Origin: a virus | Strand: one strand, 5' to 3' | IMG/VR virus record: IMGVR_UViG_3300011008_000022 | Length of the DNA stretch: 64,000 nucleotides | In this document: positions 9,267 through 61,141 of the stretch, piece by piece | Layout of the letters: each line of letters begins with the position of its first letter | Position numbering within the stretch: position 1 is the first letter of the stretch | Translations under genes and position numbers: made by a program | The notes under the pieces: generated by a model | The model's database searches: none | What the model saw: only the letters and a program-made list of their open reading frames with translations | What the model was told of the DNA's origin: nothing

Positions 9267-9776
9267 ATGAATAGTATCGTATCATTCTTCCAGAGCTTCT
9301 TCAGCTCAGTACCGCGACAGATTGCTGTCGGACTGGGAATTGTTTGGGCATGGCTGGAGCCAACACTCCCCTATGCCGCTATGTGTTTGTTTGCTGTTGT
9401 CATCGATTGCCTCACGGCATGGCGATTAAATCGGCGTGTGAAGGCTAAATATCCGAACGCAGGAGCCGATGGCAAACTGAAATCCTCACACATGTCGAAG
9501 ATGATATCAGACCTGGCTATCGTTTGGCTCTGCATCCTACTGGCAGACGGTGTGGATGATAATTTGCTCGAACACCTTGGAGGTCTCCACCTCGGCCAGT
9601 ATGTAGCAGCTATCTTTGTCCTCTGCACGGCTGTCTCGATACTCGAAAATGAGTCTTCATGCAATGGCGCTGCATGGGCAAGAGCCGTCCAGAAGATTGT
9701 CACCTCGAAAGTCGCTCGCCATATCGACATCGACGAGAAAGAATTGGAGGAGATCATACACGAGAAAAAAGAATAG
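9267..9776 (+). CDS. holin-like membrane protein (Phage_holin_4_1-like)
   Basis: 169 aa with several hydrophobic helices; VVIDCLTAW...KLKSSHMSK...SILENESSCNG resembles the D..TG / K..SS / SILEN pattern of the holin_4_1 family. Confidence 0.55.
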   Translation: MNSIVSFFQSFFSSVPRQIAVGLGIVWAWLEPTLPYAAMCLFAVVIDCLTAWRLNRRVKAKYPNAGADGKLKSSHMSKMISDLAIVWLCILLADGVDDNLLEHLGGLHLGQYVAAIFVLCTAVSILENESSCNGAAWARAVQKIVTSKVARHIDIDEKELEEIIHEKKE

Positions 9777-12401: not shown

Positions 12402-12728
12402 ATGACCTCAAAATTAGACCTTAATCGTGCTTTTAGTGAGCACGGAGTTACTTCTAAGACCGTTGCAGAGCGCATCGGACTGACACCACAGACCATCAGC
12501 GCTTATGTCAACGGCAACCCCACCGTCAAGAGCCTCTATCAGATAGCAGATGCACTTGAATGTGATGTGCGCGACCTGTTCTATCCCGTCGAGGATGCCA
12601 CAGAGGAAACCACCACTCCCGATGCCTCTCCATCGGGCACAAACGGCCCTCGTGCCTCTGCTCTGATTACATGTCCGCATTGCGGCACAGTCCTCTCAGC
12701 ATCCCTTTCGGTCTTCAACAAATCATAA
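12402..12728 (+). CDS. XRE/Cro-CI family HTH transcriptional regulator
   Basis: KTVAERIGLTPQTISAYVNG helix-turn-helix; C-terminal CPHCG; in-frame hairpin 12610-12640 (TTTPDASPSGT). Confidence 0.8.
   Translation: MTSKLDLNRAFSEHGVTSKTVAERIGLTPQTISAYVNGNPTVKSLYQIADALECDVRDLFYPVEDATEETTTPDASPSGTNGPRASALITCPHCGTVLSASLSVFNKS
12610..12640 (+). repeat. family-A hairpin, in frame in the XRE regulator gene
   Basis: ccaccactCCCGATGcctctcCATCGGGcac. Confidence 0.85.
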
Positions 12729-12745
12729 ATTCATAAATTCATCAA
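12722..12745 (+). repeat. TTCATMA heptamer array before a start codon
   Basis: atcataaattcataaattcatcaa, ATG at 12749. Confidence 0.75.
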
Positions 12746-13341: not shown

Positions 13342-14475
13342 ATGAATTACAAATCATATCTACCATTGAGCATGGCACTCGCCATGCTTTTCTCTTGCGA
13401 GAAACCTATATTGAATGAAGAGGATGCCAACGACACCCCCAAAACCATCACCTTTCAACTATTCTCCCCTGCACAGACACGTTCCACGAGATCAGCAGCA
13501 GCTATCACCGACTTCAAGAAAATCTATATCTATGACAGTAAAGGTGGCTATCAAGAGCAGCTGCTGGAGCAGTCTGCAGATGACCCCGATTTCGGCTCAC
13601 CAACCATCACCCTCACGGGTGGCCATCACCAACTGACCTTCGCCGCCATCGATAATGCGGATGCCTACCTCGATGGTAGCGTACTCAGACAGGAAACTAT
13701 GGGCGACACGTTCCTGAAAACCATCGACATCAACACTCAGAATGCACCCGCCAACCAGCGCATCGTGCTCAAACGTGTGGTAGCCGGCATCCTCTATAAG
13801 GGAGAGGGCACCGTGACACTCAGCGGACTGCGCAACGGTCTCTCGCTGTCCTCCGCGAAACCCGCTAAGGCAACAACCACAAAGACACTCTCAACGGGAC
13901 AACAGCTCTATACCCTTGTGCCCGATGACGAGACGGTGGTCATGGATGGTAAACGTAACATCCATATCCTCCAGAATGCCTTTACCGTCATCTACGACAA
14001 CGACGGCACACATACCGACCCAGAAGACCCTACCAACGGCGAATATCTCCTGACAGAAAATGATACCGCACAGATCTATGTCGCACGGATGGAACTTACC
14101 GACATCACACTGGAGAATACACCCGACCCGCAAGCCGCCTATGCAGCACAGATGTACCCCAATCGTATGCCTACCCGACGCGAAGCATACGGCTTCGTCA
14201 AAAAGGAACTGCCGGAAGACTTCTGGACGGGTGCCCGATGCCTCGCCTACGACCGACCCGAAGACAAAGGCTTCCTCGGTGCTACTGGTTGGGGCAGTGG
14301 CGACTACTACACCTTCACATGGGGACCTAACGGCACCTCCAACAAAGCAGGCACCAAAACCGCCTACTCTATCAAACCTATCCGCGTAGTCCCCATAGTC
14401 CCAATCTCCCAGTCCTTCACCCTCGACGGCGACTTCACCTGGTCCACTGACACCACCACCGTCGTCAAATTCTGA
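13342..14475 (+). CDS. lipoprotein, possible fimbrillin-like N-terminus and DUF1566-like C-terminus
   Basis: ATG 13342 (track start 13312 is a TTG inside a hairpin); lipobox AMLFS-C; C-terminal WGSGDYYTF...YSIKPIRVV resembles DUF1566-type endings; own terminator 14687-14714. Confidence 0.7.
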   Translation: MNYKSYLPLSMALAMLFSCEKPILNEEDANDTPKTITFQLFSPAQTRSTRSAAAITDFKKIYIYDSKGGYQEQLLEQSADDPDFGSPTITLTGGHHQLTFAAIDNADAYLDGSVLRQETMGDTFLKTIDINTQNAPANQRIVLKRVVAGILYKGEGTVTLSGLRNGLSLSSAKPAKATTTKTLSTGQQLYTLVPDDETVVMDGKRNIHILQNAFTVIYDNDGTHTDPEDPTNGEYLLTENDTAQIYVARMELTDITLENTPDPQAAYAAQMYPNRMPTRREAYGFVKKELPEDFWTGARCLAYDRPEDKGFLGATGWGSGDYYTFTWGPNGTSNKAGTKTAYSIKPIRVVPIVPISQSFTLDGDFTWSTDTTTVVKF

Positions 14476-14496
14476 CTCCGAGATCTACGACACTCA

Positions 14497-14612
14497 CTAC
14501 AACGTAGTCCCAGCGCTCCAAGTAGCATCTGACCTCTACAACGTAGTATCAGTGCTTCAAAGAGTAATCTGAACTCCTACAACGTAGTAAATAGCGTCGT
14601 AACGTAGTAAAA
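14497..14612 (+). repeat. three tandem ~40-bp units starting CTACAACGTAGT, plus a half unit
   Basis: ctacaacgtagt at 14499, 14537 and 14578; cgtaacgtagt at 14599. Confidence 0.8.
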
Positions 14613-14686
14613 TCAAATTTTAATCTAAAATTTTTAGAAACATTTAGTAAACAACATTAAGTTTAACCCAGCGATGCCACCGCAGC

Positions 14687-14714
14687 CCCACCGAACTCAT
14701 CGGTGGGGTTTTTG
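14687..14714 (+). terminator. intrinsic terminator (family-A-like stem plus T-run)
   Basis: CCCCACCGAactcaTCGGTGGGGttttt. Confidence 0.8.
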
Positions 14715-14745
14715 TTTCGTCATTTGCAAGGCGATTGTATCGCCC
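14715..14745 (+). repeat. family-C motif
   Basis: gtttcgtcatttgcaaGGCGATtgtATCGCC directly after terminator 14687-14714. Confidence 0.85.
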
Positions 14746-14761
14746 TAATCTCCGCCCTGCC

Positions 14762-14908
14762 GCACAAAACATCCGCCATGTCGCACAAAACACCCGCCAT
14801 GTCGCACAAAACACCCGCTCAGTCGAACGAAGTACCCGCTCCATCGAACGAAGTACCCGCTCCATCGAACGAAGTACCCGCCATGTCGAACGAAATCACC
14901 GATCTATA
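14762..14908 (+). repeat. seven tandem 21-bp repeats in two subfamilies
   Basis: 3 x cgcacaaaacacccgccatgt-like, then 4 x cgaacgaagtacccgctccat-like, head to tail without spacers. Confidence 0.9.
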
Positions 14909-15012
14909 CCTTTCTACACCGCATTTCTACACCTTTCTATACCTCTCTATACCATTTTCCTCTAACTACATACAACACTTTTCTCTAACTCCATCATTTT
15001 TCCTCTAACTGT
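14905..15012 (+). repeat. short phased repeats (about 10-11 nt TA(C/T)ACCTTTC x5, then TTTTCCTCTAAC x3)
   Basis: ctatacctttc tacaccgcatttc tacacctttc tatacctctc tataccatttt; ttttcctctaac at about 14956, 14981 and 15000. Confidence 0.75.
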
Positions 15013-15019
15013 TCGCCCA

Positions 15020-15115
15020 GGTTGGTACAAACCTTAGTACAACACAGTACAAACCTCTGATTAGGTTAGTACAAACCTTAGTATAACAAAATACTAACCC
15101 CGCTCAGGTTAGTAT
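15020..15115. repeat. palindromic 16-mers AGGTTnGTACAAACCT (x2) plus hairpin TACTAACC/GGTTAGTA
   Basis: aggttggtacaaacct 15020-15035; aggttagtacaaacct 15064-15079; tactaaccccgctcaggttagta 15093-15115. Confidence 0.8.
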
Positions 15116-15121
15116 TTTCTA

Positions 15122-15156
15122 TTCATAAATCCATTATTTCATCAATTCATAATTCA
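15122..15156 (+). repeat. TTCATMA array, orphan (only a 5-codon ORF follows)
   Basis: attcataaatccattatttcatcaattcataattc. Confidence 0.65.
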
Positions 15157-15339
15157 ATGGGATATACAAAATAATTCTTTTATCTTCTAAAAATGAATTA
15201 TTTTGCACACCCCAAAGTTAGTGTGCAGTGCGTGTCAAAAATTGCCACCGATTTGAGGGGTGCGGTGGTAGAGTGCTGCCCAAAATCGCTTGTAACTTAT
15301 TGAAAATCAGAGTAACCACCTCGAAAAAACAGTCCCATT

Positions 15340-15650
15340 CTCGCCCTCGACCGCCGCCTCACTGGATGGGCACCCCCTCCCCCTTCCCCCTGAATTGCTG
15401 CAAATATGCCGCCGGCCCTCCTGGATGGGTGCCTGATGCCCTCGAAGAGGTGCCGAGGGTGTCCGGCTGGCTCAGATCATCACCCAGAACGCCGCCCAGG
15501 GTGCCTCTCTGCTGCCCGTCATCGGTGGCCGGTGGTGGTGCTCTGCTGACATCCTGAAGAGGTGCCCGCGCTGCTGGTGGTGCTCTGCCGGTGCTCATGG
15601 ATGCCAGAACCGCCGCCCAGGGTGCCGAGGTGGTGCCGGTGGTGGTGTGT
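15340..15650. repeat. GC-rich non-coding block with internal direct repeats and about 7 RGGTGCC motifs
   Basis: gaagaggtgcc x2 (15445, 15557); ccgcccagggtgcc x2 (15492, 15611); ggtggtgctctgc x2 (15535, 15578); ctggatggg x2 (15362, 15422); flanked by AT-rich DNA. Confidence 0.7.
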
Positions 15651-15740
15651 GCTTTTATATATATAATAAGGTAAAACAAAGTATAATTTGTTTATAAGTG
15701 TTAAAAATTCGATTAAATACGAATTTATTTTGTTTTTTGT

Positions 15741-15772
15741 TTGGTGGTATCAAATTTTATTTTTACCTTTGC
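15741..15772 (+). promoter_or_regulatory. -33 TTTG / -7 TACCTTTG promoter
   Basis: tttgg...(20 nt)...tacctttg upstream of the 15826 gene. Confidence 0.6.
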
Positions 15773-15825
15773 AGCAGATTTAAAAAGTTATTCACCGCGC
15801 CACCGGCGCACAAAATTAAAAAATT

Positions 15826-16176
15826 ATGAAAAATTCCGCTTTTGTTCTCGCTTTGATGCAGATTGCAACCGCTAACCCTGAAGGATTCACCGTTAACGCT
15901 CAGACCTTGCAACCAATTACAAAAGGCTACGCCGTAGCCCTGGCAGATACTCAGAACAGCCACGACACCGCCGGCCTTCTCTCTGTTATAGACTACGCCC
16001 AGAACCACGCCGACACCGTGAACGCGATCGGCGGATGGCTCGACACTGAAAGTAACAAATTTTATTTTGATGCTACAGTAATTTGTGACGATCTCGAAGC
16101 CGCGTTAATACTGGGCCGCCGTAATAATCAGATCGCAATTTTTGACCTGGAGAAAATGGAAGAAATCAGGCTTTAA
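15826..16176 (+). CDS. hypothetical protein (116 aa), GC-richer island
   Basis: Preceded by -33/-7 promoter at 15741-15772; GCC-rich codon usage differs from neighbouring genes. Confidence 0.65.
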   Translation: MKNSAFVLALMQIATANPEGFTVNAQTLQPITKGYAVALADTQNSHDTAGLLSVIDYAQNHADTVNAIGGWLDTESNKFYFDATVICDDLEAALILGRRNNQIAIFDLEKMEEIRL

Positions 16177-16223
16177 AGCCTGGTTTCTCTCCTCATGTTA
16201 TAACCGTTTAATATTATTATATT

Positions 16224-16430
16224 ATGACTAATTATGCCCGCATCTATCGCGCCGAACTTCAGGAACTGAAGCCCGCACCCGCTTTTTATCGTTTCGCGCT
16301 GCGTCTCGTCATCGCTGCCGCCCGTATCGCTGACCGCTACCCGCGCACCGTTTCCGCTATCCTCTGGGCCGGCTCTCTCTGGGCTGTCGTTTATATCTTT
16401 TTAAATTATCGTTTTACTACTTATTTATAA
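16224..16430 (+). CDS. small membrane protein (68 aa)
   Basis: Two hydrophobic segments; tightly spaced with flanking genes. Confidence 0.55.
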   Translation: MTNYARIYRAELQELKPAPAFYRFALRLVIAAARIADRYPRTVSAILWAGSLWAVVYIFLNYRFTTYL

Positions 16431-16434
16431 AACT

Positions 16435-16770
16435 ATGAACACCACAAAGAACACCACCACCGCCGCCCCTGTTGCTGATTCTGAGGGCCGCCGCTGTTAT
16501 ACTTATATTATCGCCGTTTCTGGCCGTCTCTGGAGCCTGTGCGCTTCTGAATGGTGGGGAACCCCTGACGAAATGAGAACGAACGCCGCGAGCATGGCAA
16601 CCGCCGCCCGCATTTTCCGACACTCTGCCGCCGTTGCTGTCTATGAGCTGCGAAACGATGACTATTTATATTTTGTGCATGGTTGCGAGCTGCCAGGAAC
16701 CAACGACGCACCGGCCACCTTCCACCGCTACGCCCCGCCAGTGATCCGCCGCCAGTGTGCCAACAAATAA
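16435..16770 (+). CDS. hypothetical protein (111 aa)
   Basis: ATG 4 nt after previous stop. Confidence 0.6.
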   Translation: MNTTKNTTTAAPVADSEGRRCYTYIIAVSGRLWSLCASEWWGTPDEMRTNAASMATAARIFRHSAAVAVYELRNDDYLYFVHGCELPGTNDAPATFHRYAPPVIRRQCANK

Positions 16771-16822
16771 CCCCTATTTATAGTCCGTTTTATTATTCAC
16801 AGATTTTTAAAATTTTCCGATT

Positions 16823-19129
16823 ATGAAATACTTTGTAAATTTCCCCTATACTGCCGAGAGTTTAAAAAATGAGTTCCGCACCCTGTCTTTGAAGTTGCAC
16901 CCAGACACGGGAGGCGATGCCGAGGAGTTCGCCGCCATGATGAACGAATACGAGCAGATCGCCCGCAACCTGTCAGGAACTAAACAACACGCCCAGAGCG
17001 AAGCAGAACGCCAGGCAGAAGAAGCCCGCCGCCGTGAGGAGGAGGAAGAGCGCCGAGAGTGGGAAGCCTACCAGGAGCGCCAGCGCCAGGAACGGGAAGC
17101 AGAGCGCAAAGCAGAGGAAGAGCGCAAAGCTAAGGCCCGCCCCATCTACGAAAAGCGCTGCAAGAAATGGGCGCACCTCATGGAAGATTTAACCCCATTT
17201 ATAGAGGCTGAAAATAATGCCTATAAAAACGAGCGCCAGGCTGCCGAGACTTTCGGCTATCGTTCTGCAGAATATAAGGAGGCAGGCAAAGCCACGAAAG
17301 CCGCCAGAACTGCCACACATGCAGCCCGCCGCCGTAATCTCTTGAAGATGGCGCAAACAGCTTTCAAGGGTGTTAAATTCTCCCTTCGTTACGATAACGG
17401 CTGGGGCGGTGGTTTTATTATCGCATGGACTGACGGCCCAAGCCTGGAAGAGTTCAAGGCTGCAACCGATTACGATCTGTTTGTTTCAGTCTGGGACACC
17501 TTCGACGGTATGACAGACTGTGCCGACTATGAGCGGGCAGATTTTACAGACTTTGCCGATAAGTACAGCGGCCATCATGGAGAGGTGGAATTTGACCGTA
17601 CAATTAGCGACGAGAACAGGCAGAAAATGGCCGACGTTTTAAAGCGTCTTAATCCTGACTTTACAGACCCAGAGGCCCGCGAGCGTTACGACTGCAACAG
17701 CTGGGAAGATATCGCCGTCTTTATAGACGAGGAAAAAATCAGAGAATTTTTCCGTATCTTTGGCGCTGACTTTGACAGCGTGACCGATGAGCAGAAGAGA
17801 GCACAGCGCACAAGCCGCCACAACTTCCGCGACTATATGGACAGCCGCAAGACCTTAGCCGGTTGGATCAACGCCCTGGCCGACTTCATCACATTTAAAA
17901 CGGATGACGAGAAGAAGGCCGAGAAGCCCGCAGAGTTTGCCCCCCGTTATGGTGCCACCCTTCGCGCACTGTTTAAGCTCGTAGGCGGTCAGTCTGCCGC
18001 ATTCTGGCAGCGCGACCCCAAAACCCGCAAGAGTTCCCCGCTGTCATTGTCTGAACTCATCGAGGCCCTGGAACGTGGCGAGGCCGTAGCCTATGGAAAA
18101 AAACATGAGTACACCGACGCAGAAGGTAATATCGAGTCCGTAATTTATTGGGGTGTAAATAATGGCGGATATAAGGTACAAAAAGCCCGTGCCGAGAAGT
18201 TCGCCGCCGCTGGTTATACTCTCAGCAGTTCCGGCCATTCTTCCACCTATGCCGACGTAGAAATTACCGGCATAACTCCAGAGACTGCCGCCGCTCTTCG
18301 TGCTGAACTCGCAGACATCGAGAGACAGCGCCAGCAGTGGGAGACCAAACAGACCGCACAGAAGCCCCAGAACAGCGCCGAGACTGCCGAGCAGTCCAAC
18401 ACACAGCCCACCGACTCCGAGGCCGTCAGCGCTCCGCAAACAGTCGTAGCAGATGCCCCCGCCGATGGCTTGCAGCTCATCGACACCGCCGAGGGTGTGG
18501 CCGTCGTCTCTGAGGACTGGAAAACGACGTATTTTAATAAAAAGCACATCAAGGCCCACGGCTGCCACTGGAACAAGGAGGCGAAACGATGGGAAGCCAC
18601 CGACCCCGACGACGTGGCAAAGGTTCGCGCATGGTTTGCTCTTCGCACAGAAGAGCAGACCACCCCAGAGGCCGACACGTTAGAGGATGCCCAGAATATC
18701 ACAGAAAACGCCCAGGACAGCGCCGAGACTGTCGAGCAGTCCAACACACAGCCCACAGACTCCGAGGCCGTCAGCGAGGACGCACAGCAGCCCGCCAGCG
18801 TTTCCCCACTCTTCGAGGCAGTGGCCGACCTCTTCCGCACCTTTGCCGACATCATCCAGCAGGCCAAACGGTGGGAGGGCGTGACCATTCCAGCCGCCAC
18901 CCTCGAACGATGCGCACAGAACACCGCCGCCCGCCTCTCTGAGGTGTGCGCCTGTCTGGGCAGTCTCACGCCTGACAGCCGCGAACAGTTCGACGCGCTG
19001 GGTGTCATCTTCTGGACGCTCTCCGACAAGATCAAGACTGGCACCGACCCCGACACCCTCCAGAGTGCCACCGACTACGCCCGCGCCCAGCTCTTCGACC
19101 TCATCGAGCGCACACAAACAGAGAACTAG
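16823..19129 (+). CDS. J-domain (DnaJ-like) protein with charged coiled coil and large C-terminal extension
   Basis: N-terminus LKNEFRTLSLKLHPDTGGDAEEFAAMMNEYEQI carries the HPD signature of J domains; E/R/K-rich helix follows; 55-nt in-frame direct repeat (AETAEQSNTQPTDSEAVS twice). Confidence 0.8.
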   Translation: MKYFVNFPYTAESLKNEFRTLSLKLHPDTGGDAEEFAAMMNEYEQIARNLSGTKQHAQSEAERQAEEARRREEEEERREWEAYQERQRQEREAERKAEEERKAKARPIYEKRCKKWAHLMEDLTPFIEAENNAYKNERQAAETFGYRSAEYKEAGKATKAARTATHAARRRNLLKMAQTAFKGVKFSLRYDNGWGGGFIIAWTDGPSLEEFKAATDYDLFVSVWDTFDGMTDCADYERADFTDFADKYSGHHGEVEFDRTISDENRQKMADVLKRLNPDFTDPEARERYDCNSWEDIAVFIDEEKIREFFRIFGADFDSVTDEQKRAQRTSRHNFRDYMDSRKTLAGWINALADFITFKTDDEKKAEKPAEFAPRYGATLRALFKLVGGQSAAFWQRDPKTRKSSPLSLSELIEALERGEAVAYGKKHEYTDAEGNIESVIYWGVNNGGYKVQKARAEKFAAAGYTLSSSGHSSTYADVEITGITPETAAALRAELADIERQRQQWETKQTAQKPQNSAETAEQSNTQPTDSEAVSAPQTVVADAPADGLQLIDTAEGVAVVSEDWKTTYFNKKHIKAHGCHWNKEAKRWEATDPDDVAKVRAWFALRTEEQTTPEADTLEDAQNITENAQDSAETVEQSNTQPTDSEAVSEDAQQPASVSPLFEAVADLFRTFADIIQQAKRWEGVTIPAATLERCAQNTAARLSEVCACLGSLTPDSREQFDALGVIFWTLSDKIKTGTDPDTLQSATDYARAQLFDLIERTQTEN

Positions 19130-19270
19130 GCGCGAGCAGTCCGCGAGGCTGTCAGCTCTGACGACTCCGACCCACTGGAGAAGGCCGCTTGATATAGCGG
19201 CCTCCCCTTCCCCTCTCTTAATGTTATAGCACATCCCAAAAATCAGAAAATTTTAAAAATCTACAAAATC

Positions 19271-19522
19271 ATGGTTACAATTTCACAGAATGCCATCGCC
19301 ACCGTTAAACAGCTTAACGACCAACTTTTTGAAGCTGAGTGTGAACTGGAAGCCCAGCAGCGGGCAGTCTCTAAGTATCGCTATTATCTGGCAGCAGAAG
19401 CCAATCAGGAAACAGTCATGGATCTACGTGGTGCCATAAAGAACCTGCAGGGCTGTCAGCAGCGCGTCGATCATCTGCGCCAGCGTCTCACCGACACCCT
19501 CGAAAATATCTGGTCATTATAG
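19271..19522 (+). CDS. hypothetical protein (83 aa)
   Basis: Helical/coiled-coil-like sequence; ATG in A-rich context. Confidence 0.6.
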   Translation: MVTISQNAIATVKQLNDQLFEAECELEAQQRAVSKYRYYLAAEANQETVMDLRGAIKNLQGCQQRVDHLRQRLTDTLENIWSL

Positions 19523-19542
19523 ACCATCTCAAAAATCCCCGT

Positions 19543-19574
19543 TTTCATCATTTCATCGTTTCATCAATTCATTA
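19543..19574 (+). repeat. TTCATMA array before ATG 19579
   Basis: tttcatcatttcatcgtttcatcaattcatta. Confidence 0.8.
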
Positions 19575-19578
19575 AATT

Positions 19579-19827
19579 ATGGTCATCATCAACGGTCACA
19601 AGTTCTACGAGGTCCCTACCTCTTGCGGCACCTGTCCTTTCCTCCTCACTGGTAACACCTCCACCCCTGGCGTATCTACCGGCTACAGCAAAGGTCTGTG
19701 CGTCCAGTGGAACGAAACCCACCACACCTGGGCCAACATTCCCCGCCGCTGTTCTAAGCTCTTCCGCCGTGCTTTTGACCTCTACAATGACACCGGCGAG
19801 AATTTAGTTATCACTAAAAAAGAGTAA
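19579..19827 (+). CDS. hypothetical Cys-containing protein (82 aa)
   Basis: Start preceded by TTCATCA array 19543-19574. Confidence 0.6.
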   Translation: MVIINGHKFYEVPTSCGTCPFLLTGNTSTPGVSTGYSKGLCVQWNETHHTWANIPRRCSKLFRRAFDLYNDTGENLVITKKE

Positions 19828-19872
19828 AAAACCAACAAATTTCGATTTTATTTTAATTTTCCTGCAAAATTA

Positions 19873-19904
19873 TTTGGCAGTATCAAAATATATTCGTATC
19901 TTTG
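19873..19904 (+). promoter_or_regulatory. early promoter cassette copy 1 (-33 TTTG, -7 TATCTTTG)
   Basis: atatttggcagtatcaaaatatattcgtatctttgcacc. Confidence 0.7.
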
Positions 19905-19923
19905 CACCGACAAATAAAAGTTT

Positions 19924-19946
19924 AACCGAGCCACGAGGCTCACAAA
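19924..19946 (+). promoter_or_regulatory. conserved 5' leader hairpin (L1)
   Basis: aaccGAGCCacgaGGCTCacaaaa. Confidence 0.75.
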
Positions 19947-19959
19947 AAAGTATTTCATC

Positions 19960-20790
19960 ATGTTACAGACAGCAACAACTCAGGCACCATTTGCCGCAAT
20001 CAACATTCAGAACATCGCTAAACAGCGAGAGAACAAACAGGCTACCTTCTCTGCTATCATTCAGAACAACTGGGAAGCATGTAAGAACCGCTTTCGTGTT
20101 ACGTTCACCAATGGCACCACCGAGATCAAGCGCCTCTTTACTAACAGCGGAATGGTCTGCGAGTATGGCAAAGGCCGCCGTACCTATGGCCATTATGCCT
20201 ATATCGACAACTGGCAGAAGGTAGAACCTGTGAAGCCAGCCCCCAAATATAGTTATAGCATGTTCCACCGCAATACCACCAAGGCCGCCGCTCTCCTGGC
20301 TGCCTCTGGCTTGTGGCCCGAAATGCAGAAGCGCATGGCTGTTATGTCCCAGTTCTCCCAGTCTGAATATAACGAGATTATGGATATCTATCAGAAGAGC
20401 TGGGACTGCGACTATCGCGACACAGAGAAGCGTCAGGAACTGGAAAAGTCCTTCAACGACTTCTTCACCTCTCGTGGCACTACTCCCGACTACTACCACT
20501 TCAAGCAACTCAGCGAGAAGTCACAGATCATCAGCATCCCCTTCGGCAAAGATGGGAGTTATGAGCGCCGCATGGTTGCCAACCATTTAGAGCAGGCCCA
20601 GCAGTCCGCTGCCGACTATGACGATGGCTTTGGCGTTCGTTGGTATGGCAGCTATGATTACAGCGTCTCTGTCAGCAAGAAAGATGGTGTACTTCGTGGC
20701 TGGTACTCTGCCGAGTACAAAGGTTGTGGCAATGGCCATTATTACCTCCTACTCGATGCTACTCATGCCATCTATTGCGAAGACGATTGA
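19960..20790 (+). CDS. hypothetical early protein (276 aa)
   Basis: Downstream of promoter cassette (-7 box 19897-19904) and leader hairpin 19924-19946. Confidence 0.75.
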   Translation: MLQTATTQAPFAAINIQNIAKQRENKQATFSAIIQNNWEACKNRFRVTFTNGTTEIKRLFTNSGMVCEYGKGRRTYGHYAYIDNWQKVEPVKPAPKYSYSMFHRNTTKAAALLAASGLWPEMQKRMAVMSQFSQSEYNEIMDIYQKSWDCDYRDTEKRQELEKSFNDFFTSRGTTPDYYHFKQLSEKSQIISIPFGKDGSYERRMVANHLEQAQQSAADYDDGFGVRWYGSYDYSVSVSKKDGVLRGWYSAEYKGCGNGHYYLLLDATHAIYCEDD

Positions 20791-21139: not shown

Positions 21140-21170
21140 TTCATCATTTCATCAATTCATCAATTCATCA
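21139..21170 (+). repeat. TTCATMA array before ATG 21175
   Basis: aattcatcatttcatcaattcatcaattcatca. Confidence 0.8.
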
Positions 21171-21174
21171 TATT

Positions 21175-21587: not shown

Positions 21588-23096
21588 ATGAACATGTTTT
21601 CTTATAACTCCGATTTCTACCCCACCCCGAAAGAAGTTATTGCCCAGATGATGATGGGCGAAGATATAGTAGGCAAAACCATTCTCGAACCCTCTGCCGG
21701 TTCTGGCAATATCGTTGACTGGCTCAAAGAGAATGGAGTCAAGGAGGTCATCGCCTGCGAGAATGACCCTACCCTACTCCGCATTCTACGCGGAAAGTGT
21801 GACATCCTGGCTGAAGACTTCCTGACAGTCACCTCCGAACAGGTCAGCCACTGCGACTATATCGTAATGAACCCGCCCTTCTCTCATGGTGCCGAGCACA
21901 TTCTTCACGCCTTCGATATTGCCCCCGCTGGCTGCACCGTCGTGGCCCTCTGTAATAGCAGCAACTTTGACTCTTTCTACCGCAACAAGACCAAACAGCG
22001 CCTCGCCGAGACTATCGACCTCTACGGACAGCGCGAGTCGCTGGGTAATGTCTTCCACACTGCCGACCGTCAGACAGATGTCAACATCGAACTTATCAAG
22101 CTATACAAGGAGGGTGCCGGTGCCAGTGAGTTCGACGGTTATATCTTTGAGCAGTACGACTCAGACACTGCTGGCACTCAGGAAGGACTCATGCAATACA
22201 ACTTCGTGCGCGATATTGTGAACCGTTACGTCTCTGCTGTTCGCATGTTCGATGAAGTTATGGCTATGTCAAAGCGCATCAATGAGGTGGCCGACTTCTA
22301 CGACTTCCGCACCGTCACCGACCCTAAGACCGGCGAAACTCGCCAGGAGCCACAATACTATGGCGGACTGCCTATCACCTTTGGCGCTCAGACCAAGGGC
22401 GAACACCCCACCGCTATCAGTCACCAGCGCTATAAGCGAGAACTGCAGAAGCACTACTGGCACATCATTTTCCAGAAGCTCAACATGGAGAAGTATGCCA
22501 CCCGCGAACTCCGTGAGCAGATCAACCGCTTCATCGAGTCCCAGAAGTGCGCACCATTCACCATGAAGAATGTCTATCGCGTCATCGATATGGTCATCCA
22601 GACTAACGGACAGCGAATGCTTACCGCCCTGGAAGAAGCCTTCGACCTCATTTGCTCACTATCTGCCGAGAACTCCACCGCTGGCGAGAAATGGAAGACC
22701 AACGCTAACTATATGGTCAATCGCCGCTTCATCGTTGACTACATCACAGAGGGTTATTTCTATGGCTCCACCCGTCCAACTGTTGACTTCCCTTGTGGTG
22801 GCCGTACCGACCGCATGGAGGATGTCTGCAAGGCACTGTGCTACCTCACTGGACGCAATTACGACGAGATAGGCCGCCTAACTCAGGTAGGCCGTGGCCA
22901 ACAGTGGGGACAGTGGTTTGAGTGGGGCTTCTTCCGCTGCCGTGGCTATAAAAAGGGCACCATGCACTTTGAGTTCCTGGACGAAGACGTGTGGGCACGT
23001 TTCAATTACGAGGTAGCCGTCCAGAAGTCCAAGACAAAAGGCTGGGACCTCCCAAAGGTCACACCTAAAAAGTCGAAAAAAACAAAAGCCGCCTAA
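21588..23096 (+). CDS. N6-adenine DNA methyltransferase with DUF4942-like C-terminal domain
   Basis: FYPTP...ILEPSAGSGNI (SAM motif I) and IVMNPPF (motif IV, NPPF). Confidence 0.8.
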   Translation: MNMFSYNSDFYPTPKEVIAQMMMGEDIVGKTILEPSAGSGNIVDWLKENGVKEVIACENDPTLLRILRGKCDILAEDFLTVTSEQVSHCDYIVMNPPFSHGAEHILHAFDIAPAGCTVVALCNSSNFDSFYRNKTKQRLAETIDLYGQRESLGNVFHTADRQTDVNIELIKLYKEGAGASEFDGYIFEQYDSDTAGTQEGLMQYNFVRDIVNRYVSAVRMFDEVMAMSKRINEVADFYDFRTVTDPKTGETRQEPQYYGGLPITFGAQTKGEHPTAISHQRYKRELQKHYWHIIFQKLNMEKYATRELREQINRFIESQKCAPFTMKNVYRVIDMVIQTNGQRMLTALEEAFDLICSLSAENSTAGEKWKTNANYMVNRRFIVDYITEGYFYGSTRPTVDFPCGGRTDRMEDVCKALCYLTGRNYDEIGRLTQVGRGQQWGQWFEWGFFRCRGYKKGTMHFEFLDEDVWARFNYEVAVQKSKTKGWDLPKVTPKKSKKTKAA

Positions 23097-23107: not shown

Positions 23108-23130
23108 CCCCACTGGTTCCCCCAGTGGGG
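23108..23130 (+). repeat. family-A-like hairpin variant after the methyltransferase gene
   Basis: CCCCACTGGttcccCCAGTGGGG. Confidence 0.7.
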
Positions 23131-23136
23131 TGCTCT

Positions 23137-23167
23137 GTTTCGTTTATTGTCAGGCGATTTTATCGCC
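23137..23167 (+). repeat. family-C motif
   Basis: gtttcgtttattgtcaGGCGATtttATCGCC. Confidence 0.85.
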
Positions 23168-23212
23168 AAAACAAAAAAAAATCACTAAAAATCAAAATTT
23201 TATCGAAAAATA

Positions 23213-23244
23213 TTTGGTAATATCAAATTATATTCGTATCTTTG
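23213..23244 (+). promoter_or_regulatory. early promoter cassette copy 2
   Basis: atatttggtaatatcaaattatattcgtatctttgcacc. Confidence 0.7.
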
Positions 23245-23263
23245 CACCGACAAATAAAAGTTT

Positions 23264-23286
23264 AACCGAGGGAATCCCTCACAAAA
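23264..23286 (+). promoter_or_regulatory. conserved 5' leader hairpin (L3)
   Basis: aaccGAGGGaatCCCTCacaaaa. Confidence 0.75.
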
Positions 23287-23300
23287 AACATTTTCAGCGT

Positions 23301-23735
23301 ATGACAATCCAAGAATTTAAGAACGAAGCCGCCCGCCGAGGTCACACCTTCGACAATAGCGACAATGCCTCTCGTGCATGGTCTCGCTCATGGGGCCTTA
23401 CCTGGTGGCGCAATGTATGGTTCTATCGTGAGTACCGTCTGGGTGCTTTCACCTATCGTACTGGTCGCGTCCGCCATCGCCATCACTCTTACACTAACAC
23501 CGAGTATCGTATTAACGACTCTGAGGTTTCACAACGTGAGTTCCTAAAGGCTCTCGACACCTTTCAGGCTCCCGCCCTCTCTGCCGATGAGCAGTCCTAC
23601 ATCCAGCAGCAAGAGCAGCTTGCGCGTCAGGCTGCAGCCCGTCGTGCTGCATGGCACCGCTCCCACCCTTCACGCTCTCGCCGTCAGACCTCTTCCGATC
23701 ATGCCGTGCAACTCACATTCAATTTCGCTGCATGA
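23301..23735 (+). CDS. hypothetical early protein (144 aa)
   Basis: ATG 23301 downstream of promoter cassette (-7 box 23237-23244) and leader hairpin 23264-23286; the track start 23130 would span the promoter. Confidence 0.65.
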   Translation: MTIQEFKNEAARRGHTFDNSDNASRAWSRSWGLTWWRNVWFYREYRLGAFTYRTGRVRHRHHSYTNTEYRINDSEVSQREFLKALDTFQAPALSADEQSYIQQQEQLARQAAARRAAWHRSHPSRSRRQTSSDHAVQLTFNFAA

Positions 23736-23766
23736 TTTCATCAATTCATAAATTCATCTATTCACC
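23736..23766 (+). repeat. TTCATMA array
   Basis: tttcatcaattcataaattcatctattcacc. Confidence 0.8.
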
Positions 23767-23792: not shown

Positions 23793-24359
23793 ATGGATAA
23801 ATTTAATTTTGGAGTTATCAGACCATATATGGTCGAAGAACAGCGCATGATAAATCGTTATGCTAACGAGAATGAGGGCACTCTGCCCATGCTGCATTCA
23901 CCTCATATCAAGTTGGGTCACTATGACACTCAGACTATCGCCTCTGTTGCTATGCGTGGTCTTACCCTGAATGGCTGGACGTGTAAGCAAACCTATAAGT
24001 GGTGGCAGGACTATCGCCGCCACCATTCTGCCCTCTATCCTGGCTCATGCTCTTCTGAGGTCTCTTGTGGTCCTAAGATTTTCGAGCGCGTATGGAACAC
24101 GCTGGCTGAATGGCTGCCATATCATCTGCCTAAGATTACCAACAGCCGGTGGTACTATATGAACATCACCGACTGGGACGGACGCAGACGCAAGTGGTAT
24201 TTCGACCGCCCAGACGATGCCACCGCCGTGCATTATTTCTTGCACCATAAAAAATCAGATCACGATATCAACGAATATCATTCCCTTTATTCTGTCACCT
24301 GGGACGGTCAGAATTTCGTCAACCCGAAACGCCTTTCAGTCTCACACAAAGCTGCATAA
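23793..24359 (+). CDS. hypothetical protein (188 aa)
   Basis: Preceded by TTCATCA array and a conserved leader TTCACCGTTTCACTAAAAAACA..CAATTATG. Confidence 0.7.
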   Translation: MDKFNFGVIRPYMVEEQRMINRYANENEGTLPMLHSPHIKLGHYDTQTIASVAMRGLTLNGWTCKQTYKWWQDYRRHHSALYPGSCSSEVSCGPKIFERVWNTLAEWLPYHLPKITNSRWYYMNITDWDGRRRKWYFDRPDDATAVHYFLHHKKSDHDINEYHSLYSVTWDGQNFVNPKRLSVSHKAA

Positions 24360-24395
24360 ATTCATTCATTCATTATTTCATCAATTCATCAATTC
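24358..24395 (+). repeat. TTCATMA array running into ATG 24396
   Basis: aaattcattcattcattatttcatcaattcatcaattc. Confidence 0.8.
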
Positions 24396-25356: not shown

Positions 25357-25398
25357 TCATTCATCAATTCATACATTCATAAAATCATCAATTCATTA
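25356..25398 (+). repeat. TTCATMA array
   Basis: atcattcatcaattcatacattcataaaatcatcaattcatta. Confidence 0.8.
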
Positions 25399-25417
25399 AA
25401 TATAGGAGAAACAAATT

Positions 25418-25807: not shown

Positions 25808-27442
25808 ATGACACATTCAGATTATATCAACGCCGTTGGCCGCGCCAACTACTACTCCCACATGTACTATGTCGCATCCGCTCCCGTTGTGAGCGATGCC
25901 GAGTTTGATGCCCTCGTCGCTCAGATCGAGCAGTACGAACGCCTCAATCCCTCACACATTCTCCCAGACAGTCCCACCCAGCAGGTAGGCTCCGACCTCA
26001 ATGGCAATGGCCGTATCGTCCACCGCACCCCTATGCTCTCCTGTCAGAAGGCTCAGGACATCCAGAAGGTTGCTTCGTGGATCAACAAGACCAACCAGCG
26101 CATGAACGCCCTCACCGGCGACAACCACACTGGCGGTTACAAGCTCGTAGCCATGTGGAAGTACGACGGCATTTCTTGCTCTCTCGTCTATCAGGATGGC
26201 CAACTCATCAGCGCTGCCACTCGTGGCGATGGTAGGGTAGGGCAGGACATCACCGCCCACGCCCTCTGCATCCCCTCCATCCCTCAGCAGCTCCGCGAGA
26301 CGGGTGCCACCTACTCCCTCGCCGGTCGTATTGAGGTCCGTGGCGAAATCGTCTGCAGCAAGCGCAACCTCCACCTACTTTCCACTCGTTACACCGATTG
26401 CCGCACAGCAGCTTCCGCTCTCTGCAACCAGTCAGTGCCCGACGCTATCGATCTCGCCATGCTCGACTTCATCCCCTGGGATGCCTATATCGACGACGCT
26501 ATCAGCAGTCAGATTCAGTTCTCTTGCACCCCGCTCGGCTACCCCTGGCATAAGTTCGACTTCCTCCATCGCCTTTGCTTCATCCACCGTCCTGACGTAT
26601 GGACCGCCCACACTCTCGACGATGTTCAGCAGCTGCTGGCGAAGCGTGAGGCAGAACGTGCCGCTTTCGACTTCCCCGTTGATGGTATCGTCCTCCGCAT
26701 CATGCACGATGACTATTTCCGCGCCCTGGGTGCCACCGCACACCATCCTCATGGCTCTATCGCCTACAAGTTCGCACCCGCTAAGGCCATCACCACATGC
26801 CGCCGTATAGAGGTGACTGTAGGTAAGACTGGCAAGCGCACCCCCGTCGCTTACTTCGACTTTGTGACCCTCCTCGACCGCGAAGTACATTCCGCCTCCC
26901 TCTATTCAGAGAAGACAGCCAACGACCTCGGCATCTATCCAGGTGCCACCATCGAGGTAGGTCTGTCAAACGACATCACCCCAAAGGTCTTTCGCGTTAT
27001 AGCCACTGCCGGCGCTTCTGTTTCCTCCGTAGGCGATGGCTCTGCCGTCGCTCCTTCCCAGCCGCTCTCGGCTGGGGTAGGGGACAATGTTACGGAAAAT
27101 AACCCCTTATCTCCCGCCTCTGACGAAGCTCCCGCCGATTGTCCCGTATGTGGCGACACTATTGCCACCGATGACGAAGAGGAAGAAGTCTGGCTCGCCC
27201 CCTCTCTCTTCTCCGACGAAGCTCCCGCCACCGCTGCCCCTGTCGCCTCTGACAAAGAAGCCGCTCCTACCACAGCGCTCGGTGGTTCTCCCACCGATGA
27301 ACCCGCCACCCCTCACCATAGCACCACCGCCGCAGTTCTCGCCACTGTCGCCTGTGCTGCAGTCCTCTGTTGCTTTGGTGCAGTAGTCCTGGGTGCTGCC
27401 GTCTTCTGTCTGCCCCTCATAGCCGGCACCCTCCGCGTATAG
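25808..27442 (+). CDS. NAD-dependent DNA ligase-like protein lacking HhH/BRCT, with hydrophobic C-terminal tail
   Basis: Domain Ia-like YYSHMYYVASAPVVSDAEFDAL...DSPTQQVGS; adenylation site WKYDGISCSL; ATRGDGRVGQDIT; IEVRGEI; SIAYKFAP; OB-like VGKTGKRTPVAYF. Only a CPVCG remnant of the Zn finger remains. The protein ends in about 35 hydrophobic residues. Confidence 0.8.
   Translation: MTHSDYINAVGRANYYSHMYYVASAPVVSDAEFDALVAQIEQYERLNPSHILPDSPTQQVGSDLNGNGRIVHRTPMLSCQKAQDIQKVASWINKTNQRMNALTGDNHTGGYKLVAMWKYDGISCSLVYQDGQLISAATRGDGRVGQDITAHALCIPSIPQQLRETGATYSLAGRIEVRGEIVCSKRNLHLLSTRYTDCRTAASALCNQSVPDAIDLAMLDFIPWDAYIDDAISSQIQFSCTPLGYPWHKFDFLHRLCFIHRPDVWTAHTLDDVQQLLAKREAERAAFDFPVDGIVLRIMHDDYFRALGATAHHPHGSIAYKFAPAKAITTCRRIEVTVGKTGKRTPVAYFDFVTLLDREVHSASLYSEKTANDLGIYPGATIEVGLSNDITPKVFRVIATAGASVSSVGDGSAVAPSQPLSAGVGDNVTENNPLSPASDEAPADCPVCGDTIATDDEEEEVWLAPSLFSDEAPATAAPVASDKEAAPTTALGGSPTDEPATPHHSTTAAVLATVACAAVLCCFGAVVLGAAVFCLPLIAGTLRV
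27057..27076 (+). repeat. family-A hairpin, in frame in the ligase gene
   Basis: CCCAGCCGctctCGGCTGGG (peptide PSQPLSAG). Confidence 0.85.
27279..27297 (+). repeat. family-A-type hairpin variant, in frame in the ligase gene
   Basis: TCGGTGGttctcCCACCGA (peptide LGGSPTD). Confidence 0.65.
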
Positions 27443-27511: not shown

Positions 27512-27540
27512 ATTTCATCAATTCATCAAATCATCATTCA
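27512..27540 (+). repeat. TTCATMA array before ATG 27541
   Basis: atttcatcaattcatcaaatcatcattca. Confidence 0.8.
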
Positions 27541-28359
27541 ATGGAAAATCAATTCAACACCGTTCAGCCCAACCCCATCTGGGATGGCGAACTTTCACAG
27601 TATAGTCAGCACTTCATGTCGGGTATGCAGTTCCACGCACCCTTCATCGTCACCAAGTATCAGCAGCGTTCCGACCTCGGCGACTGCATCATCAGCACCC
27701 GTCCGCCTTATCTCGTTTGCAAGATCCACGGCTTCAAGACAGCAGCTGCTGCCGGACGCACCGACAATCCCAAGCTGGTGGCCATGGCCGAACGTGAGGA
27801 ACAGGCTCGTGTCGAATACCTCCAGCAGCGCCAGCAGGCGTTCCGCAATCGTATTGAAGCCGACCGTCATGGCATCACCATCCGCCAGCTCATTGAACAG
27901 CAGGGACGTGTCTATGACGAAGAACTCGATGAGCCGCGCATCGTCTGCAAGGTGCCTGGTCTTAATGTCTATCTCGAACTCGTAGGCTGCCTCCAGCCGC
28001 TTTCTGATGAAGACCCCGAATGGCTCGGCGACAATGGCATCCTCGCCACGCTCGACTCCATGATGCAGTGGGCACCAAACATCTACGACCGCGCCGATCG
28101 CCGTGCTCGTGCCTCTCAGTTCTCCGACATTCAGCCCCTCGACTCCTGGATTGACCCCTACAATCCTGACCTCCGCCCCTGGATGCCTCGCAAACGTGGC
28201 CTCGGTCATACTTTCATCGACCCCAGCCGCCGCCCTGATCTGCTTTACTCCAAGGCACCGCAAGGCGCTGCCGACTATGGCATGATACGCACCATCAAGG
28301 AGGCCACCGCCCACAATGCCGCCCAGGGCATAGCCCCCGAAGACTATGGCCACCGTTAG
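27541..28359 (+). CDS. hypothetical protein (272 aa)
   Basis: Preceded by TTCATCA array 27512-27540. Confidence 0.7.
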   Translation: MENQFNTVQPNPIWDGELSQYSQHFMSGMQFHAPFIVTKYQQRSDLGDCIISTRPPYLVCKIHGFKTAAAAGRTDNPKLVAMAEREEQARVEYLQQRQQAFRNRIEADRHGITIRQLIEQQGRVYDEELDEPRIVCKVPGLNVYLELVGCLQPLSDEDPEWLGDNGILATLDSMMQWAPNIYDRADRRARASQFSDIQPLDSWIDPYNPDLRPWMPRKRGLGHTFIDPSRRPDLLYSKAPQGAADYGMIRTIKEATAHNAAQGIAPEDYGHR

Positions 28360-28398: not shown

Positions 28399-28449
28399 AT
28401 TTCATCATTTCATCAATTCATACATTCATATATTCATAAATTCATAAAA
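28399..28449 (+). repeat. TTCATMA array (longest, about 6 units) upstream of the parA promoter
   Basis: atttcatcatttcatcaattcatacattcatatattcataaattcataaaa. Confidence 0.8.
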
Positions 28450-61102: not shown

Positions 61103-61141
61103 TCATAAATTCATAAATTCATTAAATTATCAATTCATCAA
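61103..61141 (+). repeat. TTCATMA array before the ACP gene
   Basis: ctcataaattcataaattcattaaattatcaattcatca. Confidence 0.8.

Follow-up and report, generated by a model that had tools for sequence, protein, structure and literature searches.

What a phage might do with a 768-aa protein that opens with a J domain and runs on into a long extension is the question raised by the genes at 15826–19129 of the window, the whole 64,000-nt stretch of viral DNA that was analysed (Table 1). To our knowledge, of the phage-encoded J-domain proteins known so far Rki alone has been characterised in detail, and surveys assign no function to most class-C forms. A sequence-only reading of this locus had described it as a GC-rich compositional island, devoid of the repeats of the phage and lying next to a candidate origin. 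The ORFs were found where that reading had placed them, with the motif LHPDTGGD at residues 25–32 of the product of the largest gene (hereafter the J gene and J protein).

The N-terminus of the 768-aa protein is a true J domain, as had been proposed. Residues H26, P27 and D28 are invariant across an alignment of 49 family sequences, and the HPD motif is kept in 158 of 159 J-bearing relatives. The Pfam DnaJ model (PF00226) matched 46 of the 49 members at E<0.01 (best 2.7e-6) and precomputed PF00226 matches are present for some relatives, while the window protein itself scored 19.5 bits, which is below the gathering cut-off of 27.8. A search of the PDB with the family profile found only J domains, among them those of DNAJA1 (5e-6), SV40 large T (9e-6) and small t (2e-5). 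The spacing of the loop is T-antigen-like, HPDxGG(D/N), and F18, R19, K24 and F36 are present in the region. The AF2 model places helices at residues 11–25 and 33–117, showing helices II and III only of the canonical four-helix J domain with separate helices I and IV not modelled. Foldseek aligned it locally with Tim14 (2guz_A; probability 0.96, rmsd 0.8 Å, 41 columns), and it also superposes locally on phage J proteins. No Hsp70 gene was found in the nearest phage genome (96% complete), so if the J domain is functional its partner must be the host DnaK. The J domain probably acts by recruiting DnaK.

The J protein is modular, with seven to eight modules delimited: the J domain is followed by an ER/K helix, LPD29, a helical region, an alpha/beta domain, a DUF5710-like module and a helical bundle. 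The charged coiled coil anticipated after the J domain was found as a charged helix, residues 57–118 being 61% E/R/K, and AF2 modelled the whole of 33–117 as one unbroken helix (pLDDT 82–92). Against PF18847 the LPD29 region of the window protein scored 24.7 bits (cut-off 27), with relatives scoring up to 47 bits; R171, N172, W202, G205, P206 and D232 are invariant in this region and its dN/dS is 0.09–0.15. The helical linker was found in 98 of 261 relatives with its own domain HMM. The alpha/beta domain (dN/dS 0.11–0.16) gave no significant Foldseek match. The WKTTYFNKKHIKAHGCHWNKEAKRWEA segment pointed out previously is present and sits within the DUF5710-like module. This module is named DUF5710-like only, since its score against DUF5710 (PF18974) is below the gathering score of 26.5: the window protein reaches 13.3 bits (E 0.07) and the relatives ~20 bits at best, with 9 of the 49 at E<0.01. 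It was found with its own HMM in 224 of 261 relatives and is under the strongest constraint within the gene (dN/dS 0.03–0.06). On its two sides lie the copies of a 92-nt direct repeat (84% identity, spacing 345 nt or 115 codons), the second copy being diverged in the related loci L006–L008. Conservation across the family is highest in the C-terminal helical bundle, which gave no fold match.

The J gene would be transcribed as gene four of a six-gene unit, from a host-type promoter. The promoter-like site that heads the unit is followed by the next site of the same type at 19873–19904, and matches to TTTGN{17,23}TANNTTTG number nine in the window where 0.83 were expected. The product of g1 has an identity of 90–94% in L006–L008 and L010 and of 67% in L004, with the same position in each, and a phmmer search against the PDB gave chance matches only; for g2 the values are 90–97% in close relatives and 53% in L004. 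The g3-like unit is placed after the DUF5710-like module in the J-family proteins into which it is fused, namely P0077 (residues 659–749; 36% identity over 91 residues, E 3e-17), P0002, P0015, P0081, P0114 and P0122. Neither g2 nor g3 had a match in Pfam, PHROGs or NCBIfam. The gene g5, with its ATG at 19271, is kept in close relatives, and g6, which is preceded by a TTCATCA array, is absent from all loci compared. The J gene is flanked by a 22-nt inverted repeat, both arms of which are kept in L006–L008 and L010 and are not conserved in distant relatives. Downstream of it lie a DUF4942 adenine methylase, an NAD ligase and ParA, and it is located outside the head and tail modules. An Rfam search of 14000–20000 returned no RNA family, and the GC-rich stretch at 15228–15680 has no consistently conserved frame. 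An intergenic motif, CCCCTATTTATAG, occurs around the gene in relatives; with five loose matches in the window it was rejected as a repeat family there.

Table 1. Positions of the features at and around the J gene (window coordinates).
Feature	Position	Strand	Basis or remark
Bacteroidota-type promoter-like site TTTG-N20-TAccTTTG	15740–15771	+	heads transcription unit; repeat family D6
g1, 116 aa	15826–16176	+	without Pfam, PHROG or NCBIfam match
g2, 68 aa, small hydrophobic protein	16224–16430	+	sequence inspection
g3, 111 aa	16435–16770	+	fold unit fused into J-family protein of six relatives
Inverted repeat I1 (22 nt, 21/22), left arm	16801–16822	.	abuts J gene ATG
J gene	16823–19129	+	768-aa ORF
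J domain, residues 1–60 (helix II, HPD loop, helix III)	16823–17002	+	profiles, alignment, AF2, Foldseek
ER/K-rich single long helix or coiled-coil spacer, residues 61–118	17003–17176	+	composition, AF2
LPD29 (large polyvalent-protein-associated domain 29) region, residues 119–275	17177–17647	+	Pfam PF18847
Helical linker region, residues 276–368	17648–17926	+	AF2 model
Alpha/beta domain, residues 369–485, motifs FAPRYG and GGYK	17927–18277	+	AF2 pLDDT 84–92
In-frame direct repeat D4, copy 1, acidic linker SAETAEQSNTQPTDSEAVS	18340–18431	+	5' side of DUF5710-like module
DUF5710-like module, residues 545–610	18455–18652	+	weak Pfam match, AF2 pLDDT 86–93
In-frame direct repeat D4, copy 2	18685–18776	+	3' side of DUF5710-like module
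C-terminal helical bundle, residues 660–768, motifs EGVTIP, EVCACL, FDALGxIFW	18800–19126	+	25 invariant columns
Premature TAG	19127–19129	+	CAG (Gln) in all five close relatives
Orphaned in-frame tail ARAVREAVSSDDSDPLEKAA and natural family stop TGA	19130–19192	+	carries Ala-Ala tip
Inverted repeat I1, right arm	19241–19262	.	just 5' of g5 ATG
g5 (83 aa) and g6 (82 aa)	19271–19827	+	final genes before next promoter-like site
DUF4942 adenine methylase	21588–23096		separate gene from J gene

Conserved and syntenic, the J gene belongs to the core genes of a group of tailed phages (~95–137 kb) of rumen or gut Prevotellaceae. Four close relatives preserve the gene order g1, g2, g3, J gene, g5, g8, DUF4942 methylase, with protein identities of 81–99% (87–92% for the J protein). 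One further relative has g1, g2, the J gene, g8 and the methylase at 51–67% identity, and the J protein alone was found in six more distant contigs at 30–67% best-segment identity. It is also present, at 36% identity, in L018, which is a contig of 98 kb from a Prevotellaceae MAG. A word-indexed search gave more than 196 homologues at E<=1e-3, and in a profile search 3610 representatives passed E<1e-3 and 106 passed E<1e-30, the homologue-bearing contigs being 95–137 kb in length; the INPHARED phage collection yielded no match at either the DNA or the protein level. The J domain is replaced by another N-terminal domain in 53 relatives, and modules of the J protein recur in LPD5/LPD1 proteins and in LPD29-DUF5710L-MutS_I proteins. 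The J gene is under purifying selection, and its central part is replaced in the nearest phage. Three more distant long contigs (L014–L016) have few or no neighbours in common with the window, and the establishment context is therefore shown for the closer relatives only.

It is considered probable that the J protein is a class-C J-domain adaptor, similar to a small polyvalent protein and expressed from a host-type promoter, which couples the host DnaK to DNA entry or establishment. The J domain would dock on ATP-bound DnaK and trigger ATP hydrolysis, and DnaK may then clamp onto the cargo of the downstream modules. No fold or function match in the PDB was obtained for any of the non-J modules, so the client is a guess; most likely it would be a protein–DNA complex arising at entry or establishment of the phage genome. 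The central modules could serve as exchangeable specificity parts, with the J domain and the C-terminal part as a constant chassis. The J gene is presumably expressed early. LPD domains have been placed among the facilitators of the early invasion phase (Iyer et al., 2017, PMC5512222).

It is also possible, with a distinctly lower probability, that the J protein is an anti-defence effector, its modules attaching to an immune protein of the host or protecting the entering DNA, with DnaK recruited to unfold or sequester the target. LPD domains have been predicted to be counter-defence factors or invasion facilitators (PMC5512222) and LPD29 genes have been found in Aca-regulated operons (PMC13551039). 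The nearby self-methylase is of a type common in polyvalent proteins, and MutS-I is carried by relatives, if only by the more distant ones. The central region is exchanged between phages, 1.36 kb of the J gene being replaced in the nearest phage between flanks of 87–91% identity, and such swapped modules would reflect an arms race if the protein were an effector of this kind. However, the modules that are retained are under strong purifying and not diversifying selection (dN/dS 0.18–0.20 for the J gene overall and 0.03–0.16 in the folded modules), no known anti-defence protein was matched and the PHROGs matched were only of 'unknown function'.

A role as an adaptor for replication or plasmid establishment, in which the J protein brings DnaK to the phage initiator or replisome, is unlikely. 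Such a role has precedents in the action of host DnaJ and DnaK on P1 RepA, mini-F RepE and the lambda O-P-DnaB complex (PMC8215388), and ParA and the NAD ligase, in the same orientation as the J gene, together with the iteron-like repeat block immediately upstream are in its favour. This tandem-repeat block (14684–15335) is, however, missing in the nearest relative, which has ~2.7 kb of other sequence instead, and a replication role is thus just one among several readings. Some 11 kb also separate the J gene from the putative Rep, nothing in the protein resembles a domain for origin binding or helicase loading, and in distant relatives the J protein is retained where these replication neighbours are not.

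The allele in the window is without the translated, conserved C-terminal tip of the family, owing to a stop codon. There is a minor chance that the J gene is decaying in this genome, or that an assembly or consensus error is present, and that the truncated, deleted allele is non-functional. Besides the change of CAG to TAG at 19127, seen against CAG in five of five close relatives, there is a 7-residue deletion at 18911–18916 relative to L006–L008 and L010, which removes a near-invariant Trp, and the tail is kept in 126 of the 128 relatives having the C-terminal domain. As both this Trp and the conserved tail are missing, the allele may be impaired. Nonetheless, 768 codons are still open, the remaining gene has a dN/dS of ~0.2 against close relatives and the lesions are confined to the last domain. 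Recoding of TAG to Gln was rejected, with TAG ending 15 of 61 genes with non-coding read-through and no tRNA gene found in the window.

The tip itself, an Ala-Ala C-terminal end, is found in 143 of 159 J-bearing relatives, is retained even where the C-terminal domain is swapped and, in this lineage, is also carried by the neighbouring methylase and by two further genes in the region. It is conceivable, though rather doubtful, that the family represents a self-limiting DnaK hijacker with swappable specificity modules and this tip as a common short signal. The constant J domain and ER/K spacer would then aim the host DnaK at clients chosen by the swappable modules (LPD29, g3-like, DUF5710-like and MutS-I), and the Ala-Ala tip, acting for instance as a ClpX degron of the ssrA type or as a tag for docking or packaging, could time or route a whole set of entry-phase proteins. 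If this were so, the TAG allele of the window would be a natural tip-less variant.

It is improbable that the J protein is a modulator of DnaK in the manner of Rki, which would titrate or redirect DnaK and so reprogram host proteostasis with no specific client delivered. The sigma-32 circuit targeted by Rki is, as far as is known, proteobacterial. Rki is also small, whereas the J domain here is followed by ~700 residues of conserved modules under selection, and this points to specific partners. In favour of such modulation stands Rki of phage RB43 itself, an early phage J-domain protein that acts via DnaK and is no generic co-chaperone (PMC3486835).

That the stretch is a horizontally acquired compositional island, or moron, adjoining an origin is very improbable, for although its GC is raised and the 3' third of the J gene is locally GC-rich, its composition is no outlier, its genes are collinear in relatives with the J protein the most widely conserved, and repeat-free stretches of such size are common. 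The observation of a higher GC stands in a modest form, 0.542 against a mean of 0.502 (SD 0.025) over 3304-bp windows; 5.4% of equal-sized windows have a GC of 0.542 or more, other high-GC regions (up to 0.564) have window starts at ~24.9–26.7 kb and ~59–60.2 kb, and the first two genes, g1 (0.476) and g2 (0.512), are at or below average. The GC of the J gene (0.563; GC3 0.648) is equalled or exceeded by that of the ligase (0.588), 27541–28359 (0.584), ParA (0.565) and 61393–62625 (0.579), and its excess is limited to codons 501–768 (GC 0.61–0.64, GC3 0.73–0.84). The codon usage proved not to be distinctive, the J gene ranking 11th of 25 genes (of ~260 aa or more) in synonymous-codon distance. 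Of the repeat families definable in this analysis, which may differ from the A, B and C motifs of the sequence-only reading, 15826–19129 contains no TTCATCA array, TTCT-loop GC hairpin or TTTG..TAnnTTTG promoter-like site, and is free of repeats save for one TTCATCA (17885) and one copy in reverse complement (16938). This is not exceptional: 13% of equal-sized windows contain none of the 47 repeat elements counted, and the element-free gap at 15771–19544, which ranks fourth-largest, is explained by the presence of a single ORF of 2.3 kb in a compact operon. Neither the deviant composition nor the patchy presence of a genomic island or moron was found. The sequence-only reading had itself named core, syntenic genes in relatives as grounds for refuting the island, and this is what the relatives show.

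With the island interpretation corrected and the allele of this genome recognised as truncated, the J protein represents a large family (106 representatives at E<1e-30, and thousands with modules in common) that abundant Prevotellaceae phages of ~100 kb conserve. In this family a handle for recruiting a chaperone is linked to modules of the polyvalent-protein type, with putative roles in the entry phase. This makes the protein tractable: the J domain lends itself to assays with DnaK, and partners of the rest of the protein would give the LPD29 and DUF5710-like modules a first function.

Polyvalent proteins combine two to fifteen distinct domains, including those of LPD type, in a single polypeptide encoded by a phage or conjugative element (PMC5512222). 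Like these, the J protein is a multi-module phage polypeptide with an LPD29 region, which was detected in the family. Its modules are common to LPD1/LPD5 and MutS-I proteins and are shuffled among relatives and split from or fused to neighbour genes, and its gene lies near an adenine methylase. Unlike them, it is without ArdC-N and the hallmark enzymatic domains, with no Pfam match to a methylase, SNF2 helicase, MPTase or ArdC-N in the window protein or 49 close relatives; it is also small at 768 aa, and its delivery with the DNA is only putative. The terms 'DnaJ' and 'J domain' have 0 occurrences each in the main text of PMC5512222, no description of the J-LPD29-DUF5710-like-helical bundle architecture was found in the searchable literature, and a UniProt/BFVD relative carries the mere label 'LPD29'. 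Rki (ORF 057w of the T4-like phage RB43; PMC3486835) is likewise a phage-encoded J-domain protein, is HPD- and host DnaK-dependent and is expressed early from a host-type promoter (Perrody et al., 2012). It has, however, no sequence relation to the J protein beyond the J domain and is without the long modular extension, and its known effect, stabilisation of sigma-32, belongs to enterobacterial physiology. The polyomavirus T antigens resemble the J protein in having an N-terminal J domain with the same short loop (HPDKGGD as against HPDTGGD/HPDRGGN) followed by effector modules, and the likeness is limited to this domain and this logic; the J protein is without an origin-binding or helicase domain. 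Like bacterial class-C J-domain proteins such as DjlA, and like the phage and bacterial class-C forms surveyed by Barriot et al. (2020; as cited in PMC8215388 and PMC10410713), the J protein has only the J domain in common with DnaJ; in that class the other domains, often of unknown function, are what gives specificity.

The window is a portion of a tailed phage genome. The nearest virus record, G001 (101,861 bp, 96% complete), contains 64% of the 31-letter words sampled from the window. A relative of the large J-domain protein of the window (J protein) is encoded on a 98-kb contig that was assigned to a MAG of uncultured rumen Prevotellaceae.

The J gene region was found to be core and not an island. 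In the close relatives L006-L008 and in G001, the small genes g1, g2 and g3, the J gene, g5 (3' of the J gene), g8 and the methylase gene are collinear, with protein identities of 81-99% (87-92% for the J protein). The sequence-only reading had proposed a compositional island and had itself named core, syntenic genes in relatives as a refutation. Among further related loci, L004 also has g1, g2, the J gene, g8 and the methylase gene at 51-67% identity, L016 retains the order J gene, methylase, ligase, and L011-L015 have the J protein as the sole shared gene. A profile search for the J protein gave 3610 representatives at E<1e-3, 106 of them at E<1e-30.

Nor does 15826-19129 stand out as a compositional island, as had been suggested. 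Its GC content is 0.542 against a window mean of 0.502 (SD 0.025, equal-sized windows), a value reached or exceeded in 5.4% of equal-sized windows, with two other regions being higher. GC content is 0.476 for g1, 0.512 for g2 and 0.563 for the large gene (GC3 0.648), whose GC content is equalled or surpassed by the ligase gene, the 27541-28359 gene, ParA and 61393-62625. The large gene ranks 11th of 25 genes in synonymous-codon distance from the rest, and its GC excess lies only in codons 501-768 (GC3 0.73-0.84), the segment common to the window and G001 at 87%. The four ORFs and quoted motifs were all located where claimed, and the region is indeed free of the repeats, but this is not remarkable, as 13% of equal-sized windows are also element-free and three element-free gaps in the window are longer. 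Among the elements counted, GC hairpins looped by TTC(T) numbered 25, (TTCATCAA)n arrays 12 and promoter-like sites 10. None falls within 15826-19129, which consists of one 2.3-kb ORF and three closely packed small genes with a single promoter-like site upstream (15740-15771). The pattern TTTG-N17-23-TAnnTTTG has nine matches in the window against 0.83 expected.

The N-terminal J domain, also noticed from the sequence, is strongly supported at the level of the family. Pfam DnaJ matches residues 10-44 of the window protein with 19.5 bits, under the cut-off of 27.8; 46 of 49 family members give a DnaJ match at E<0.01, and M1-K2-Y3-F4, H26-P27-D28, G30-G31, F36 and M39 are invariant in the 49-sequence alignment. 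HPD is kept in 158 of the 159 J-bearing relatives, and the J domain is N-terminal in 156. In the PDB the family profile retrieved J domains and nothing else (DNAJA1, 5e-6; SV40 large T, 9e-6; small t, 2e-5). The AF2 model (mean pLDDT 71) superposed locally on Tim14, with a probability of 0.96 and an rmsd of 0.8 A, as well as on phage J proteins from BFVD. The HPDxGG(D/N)xEEF loop spacing of the family is that of the T antigens. Genevaux et al. in 2002 reportedly found DnaJ residues Y25, K26, H33, P34, D35 and F47 to be essential in vivo; the corresponding residues of the window protein are F18, R19, H26, P27, D28 and F36. No Hsp70 is encoded in G001, and its only J domain is that of the J protein.

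The layout beyond the J domain was derived from the AF2 model and custom domain HMMs (see table). No non-J module had a significant PDB fold match; the top BFVD match was a gut-virome protein labelled 'LPD29' (large polyvalent-protein-associated domain 29; E 1e-17). The full architecture is present in 80 of 261 collected relatives and a J-LPD29-DUF5710L-Cterm architecture in 30, while in 53 another domain of ~230 aa takes the place of the J domain before LPD29-DUF5710L (DUF5710-like module). This domain, without a Pfam match, carries the motifs CGWCG..MSP.SR and LIDxEGYxYARY (P0017, P0122, P0160 and others). In the G001 protein (L010 7001-9616) this same domain does not replace the J domain but follows it as an insertion, ahead of the ER/K helix. 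Compared with three close relatives, the J gene as a whole has a dN/dS of 0.18-0.20; the value falls to 0.03-0.06 in the DUF5710-like module and to 0.09-0.16 in LPD29 and the alpha/beta domain, and rises to 0.36-0.51 in the linkers.

Positions of genes, J protein modules and repeats in the window
Feature	Position	Strand	Remark
Holin	9267-9776		
g1	15826-16176	+	
g2	16224-16430	+	
g3	16435-16770	+	
J gene	16823-19129	+	768 aa
DUF4942 adenine methylase	21588-23096		
NAD ligase	25808-27442		
ParA	28522-29385		
DUF5906 primase-helicase	46378-50046		
Tape-measure-like protein	55282-61071		
J domain	residues 1-60		
ER/K single helix	residues 61-118		61% E/R/K over 57-118
LPD29	residues 119-275		
Helical region	residues 276-368		
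Alpha/beta domain	residues 369-485		
Coiled coil	residues 486-512		
Acidic linker	residues 513-544		
DUF5710-like module	residues 545-610		
Acidic linker	residues 611-659		
Helical bundle	residues 660-768		
92-nt in-frame direct repeat	18340-18431, 18685-18776		either side of DUF5710-like module
(TTCATCAA)n arrays	12722-12745, 19544-19575, 21140-21171, 23737-23760, 24369-24392	+	
(TTCATCAA)n arrays	25376-25399, 27514-27537, 28401-28448, 61110-61125	+	

Exchange of modules is seen between the window and G001, where 15822-16981 aligns at 91% and 18346-19578 at 87%, and the intervening 1.36 kb of the window is replaced in G001 by 1.6 kb encoding a different module set. One breakpoint falls where the J domain ends, the other at the first copy of the 92-nt repeat. 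The g3 protein matches, at 36% identity (E 3e-17), a module that six family members carry fused behind the DUF5710-like module, a link by gene fusion between g3 and the large protein.

The window allele carries two lesions, whereas an intact allele, such as those of L006-L008, encodes 796 aa. At 19127-19129 it has TAG where all of L006-L010 have CAG, the frame beyond being open for 20 codons (ARAVREAVSSDDSDPLEKAA) until the natural family stop at 19190-19192, and a 7-residue deletion at 18911-18916 removes a near-invariant Trp of the C-terminal bundle. Recoding of TAG is not indicated, since 15 of 61 window genes end normally in TAG. The natural end (tail 19130-19192) has an Ala-Ala tip, as do 126 of the 128 relatives that carry the C-terminal bundle and 143 of 159 J-bearing relatives, including ones with a swapped C-terminal domain. 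In the window the methylase (..KTKAA) and the next two genes, 23130-23735 (..NFAA) and 23793-24359 (..HKAA), also end in this way, and none of 57 other genes do; among 113 ORFs of G001 only the J protein and methylase do (0.75 expected), and in L004 5 of 23. The methylase homologues end in Ala-Ala in 22 of 120 cases, others in TLFG or TSLF, which resemble clamp-binding tips. The tip may serve as a short linear signal; one candidate would be an ssrA-like ClpX degron.

Tandem 8-nt (TTCATCAA)n arrays lie 5' of start codons, four stopping 3-4 nt short of ATG (e.g., 12749, 19579, 24396, 27541); their appearance suggests a leader or translation signal specific to the phage. A 22-nt inverted repeat (21/22; 16801-16822 and 19241-19262) exactly brackets the J gene, each arm directly 5' of a start codon. 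Its conservation is restricted to close relatives, and it may be a recombination site or a pair of operators. Three adjacent tandem-repeat families (39-nt x2.4, 21-nt x about 7, 22/44-nt x2-3) lie in the stretch 14490-15115, after a terminator-like hairpin (14684-14710); in G001 their place is taken by unrelated sequence of about 2.7 kb. At 15228-15680 the sequence is GC-rich (0.60) and of low complexity, with a decayed 121-nt duplication and no Rfam match; the open frame differs from relative to relative, so that no coding or RNA function is evident. An 82-aa gene at 19579-19827, with a TTCATCA array 5' of it, was found in none of the related loci examined, both neighbours being conserved, and is a small strain-specific insertion.

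These facts fit a class-C J-domain adaptor, which would be made from a host-type promoter and would recruit host DnaK to whatever client its modules hold. This client may belong to replication or plasmid establishment, for which P1 RepA, RepE and lambda O-P-DnaB are precedents (PMC8215388), or to counter-defence, or the protein may be a general modulator of DnaK, as is Rki (PMC3486835). LPD5/LPD1 proteins also carry the DUF5710-like module, and in other proteins MutS domain I follows LPD29-DUF5710L (<=100 bits); MutS-I and LPD domains are components of polyvalent proteins acting early in invasion (Iyer et al., 2017; PMC5512222), a study whose main text does not include J domains. No description of a J domain combined with a polyvalent-type module was found in the searchable literature. 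The protein is of a known kind, that of phage class-C J-domain proteins and polyvalent-type LPD proteins.
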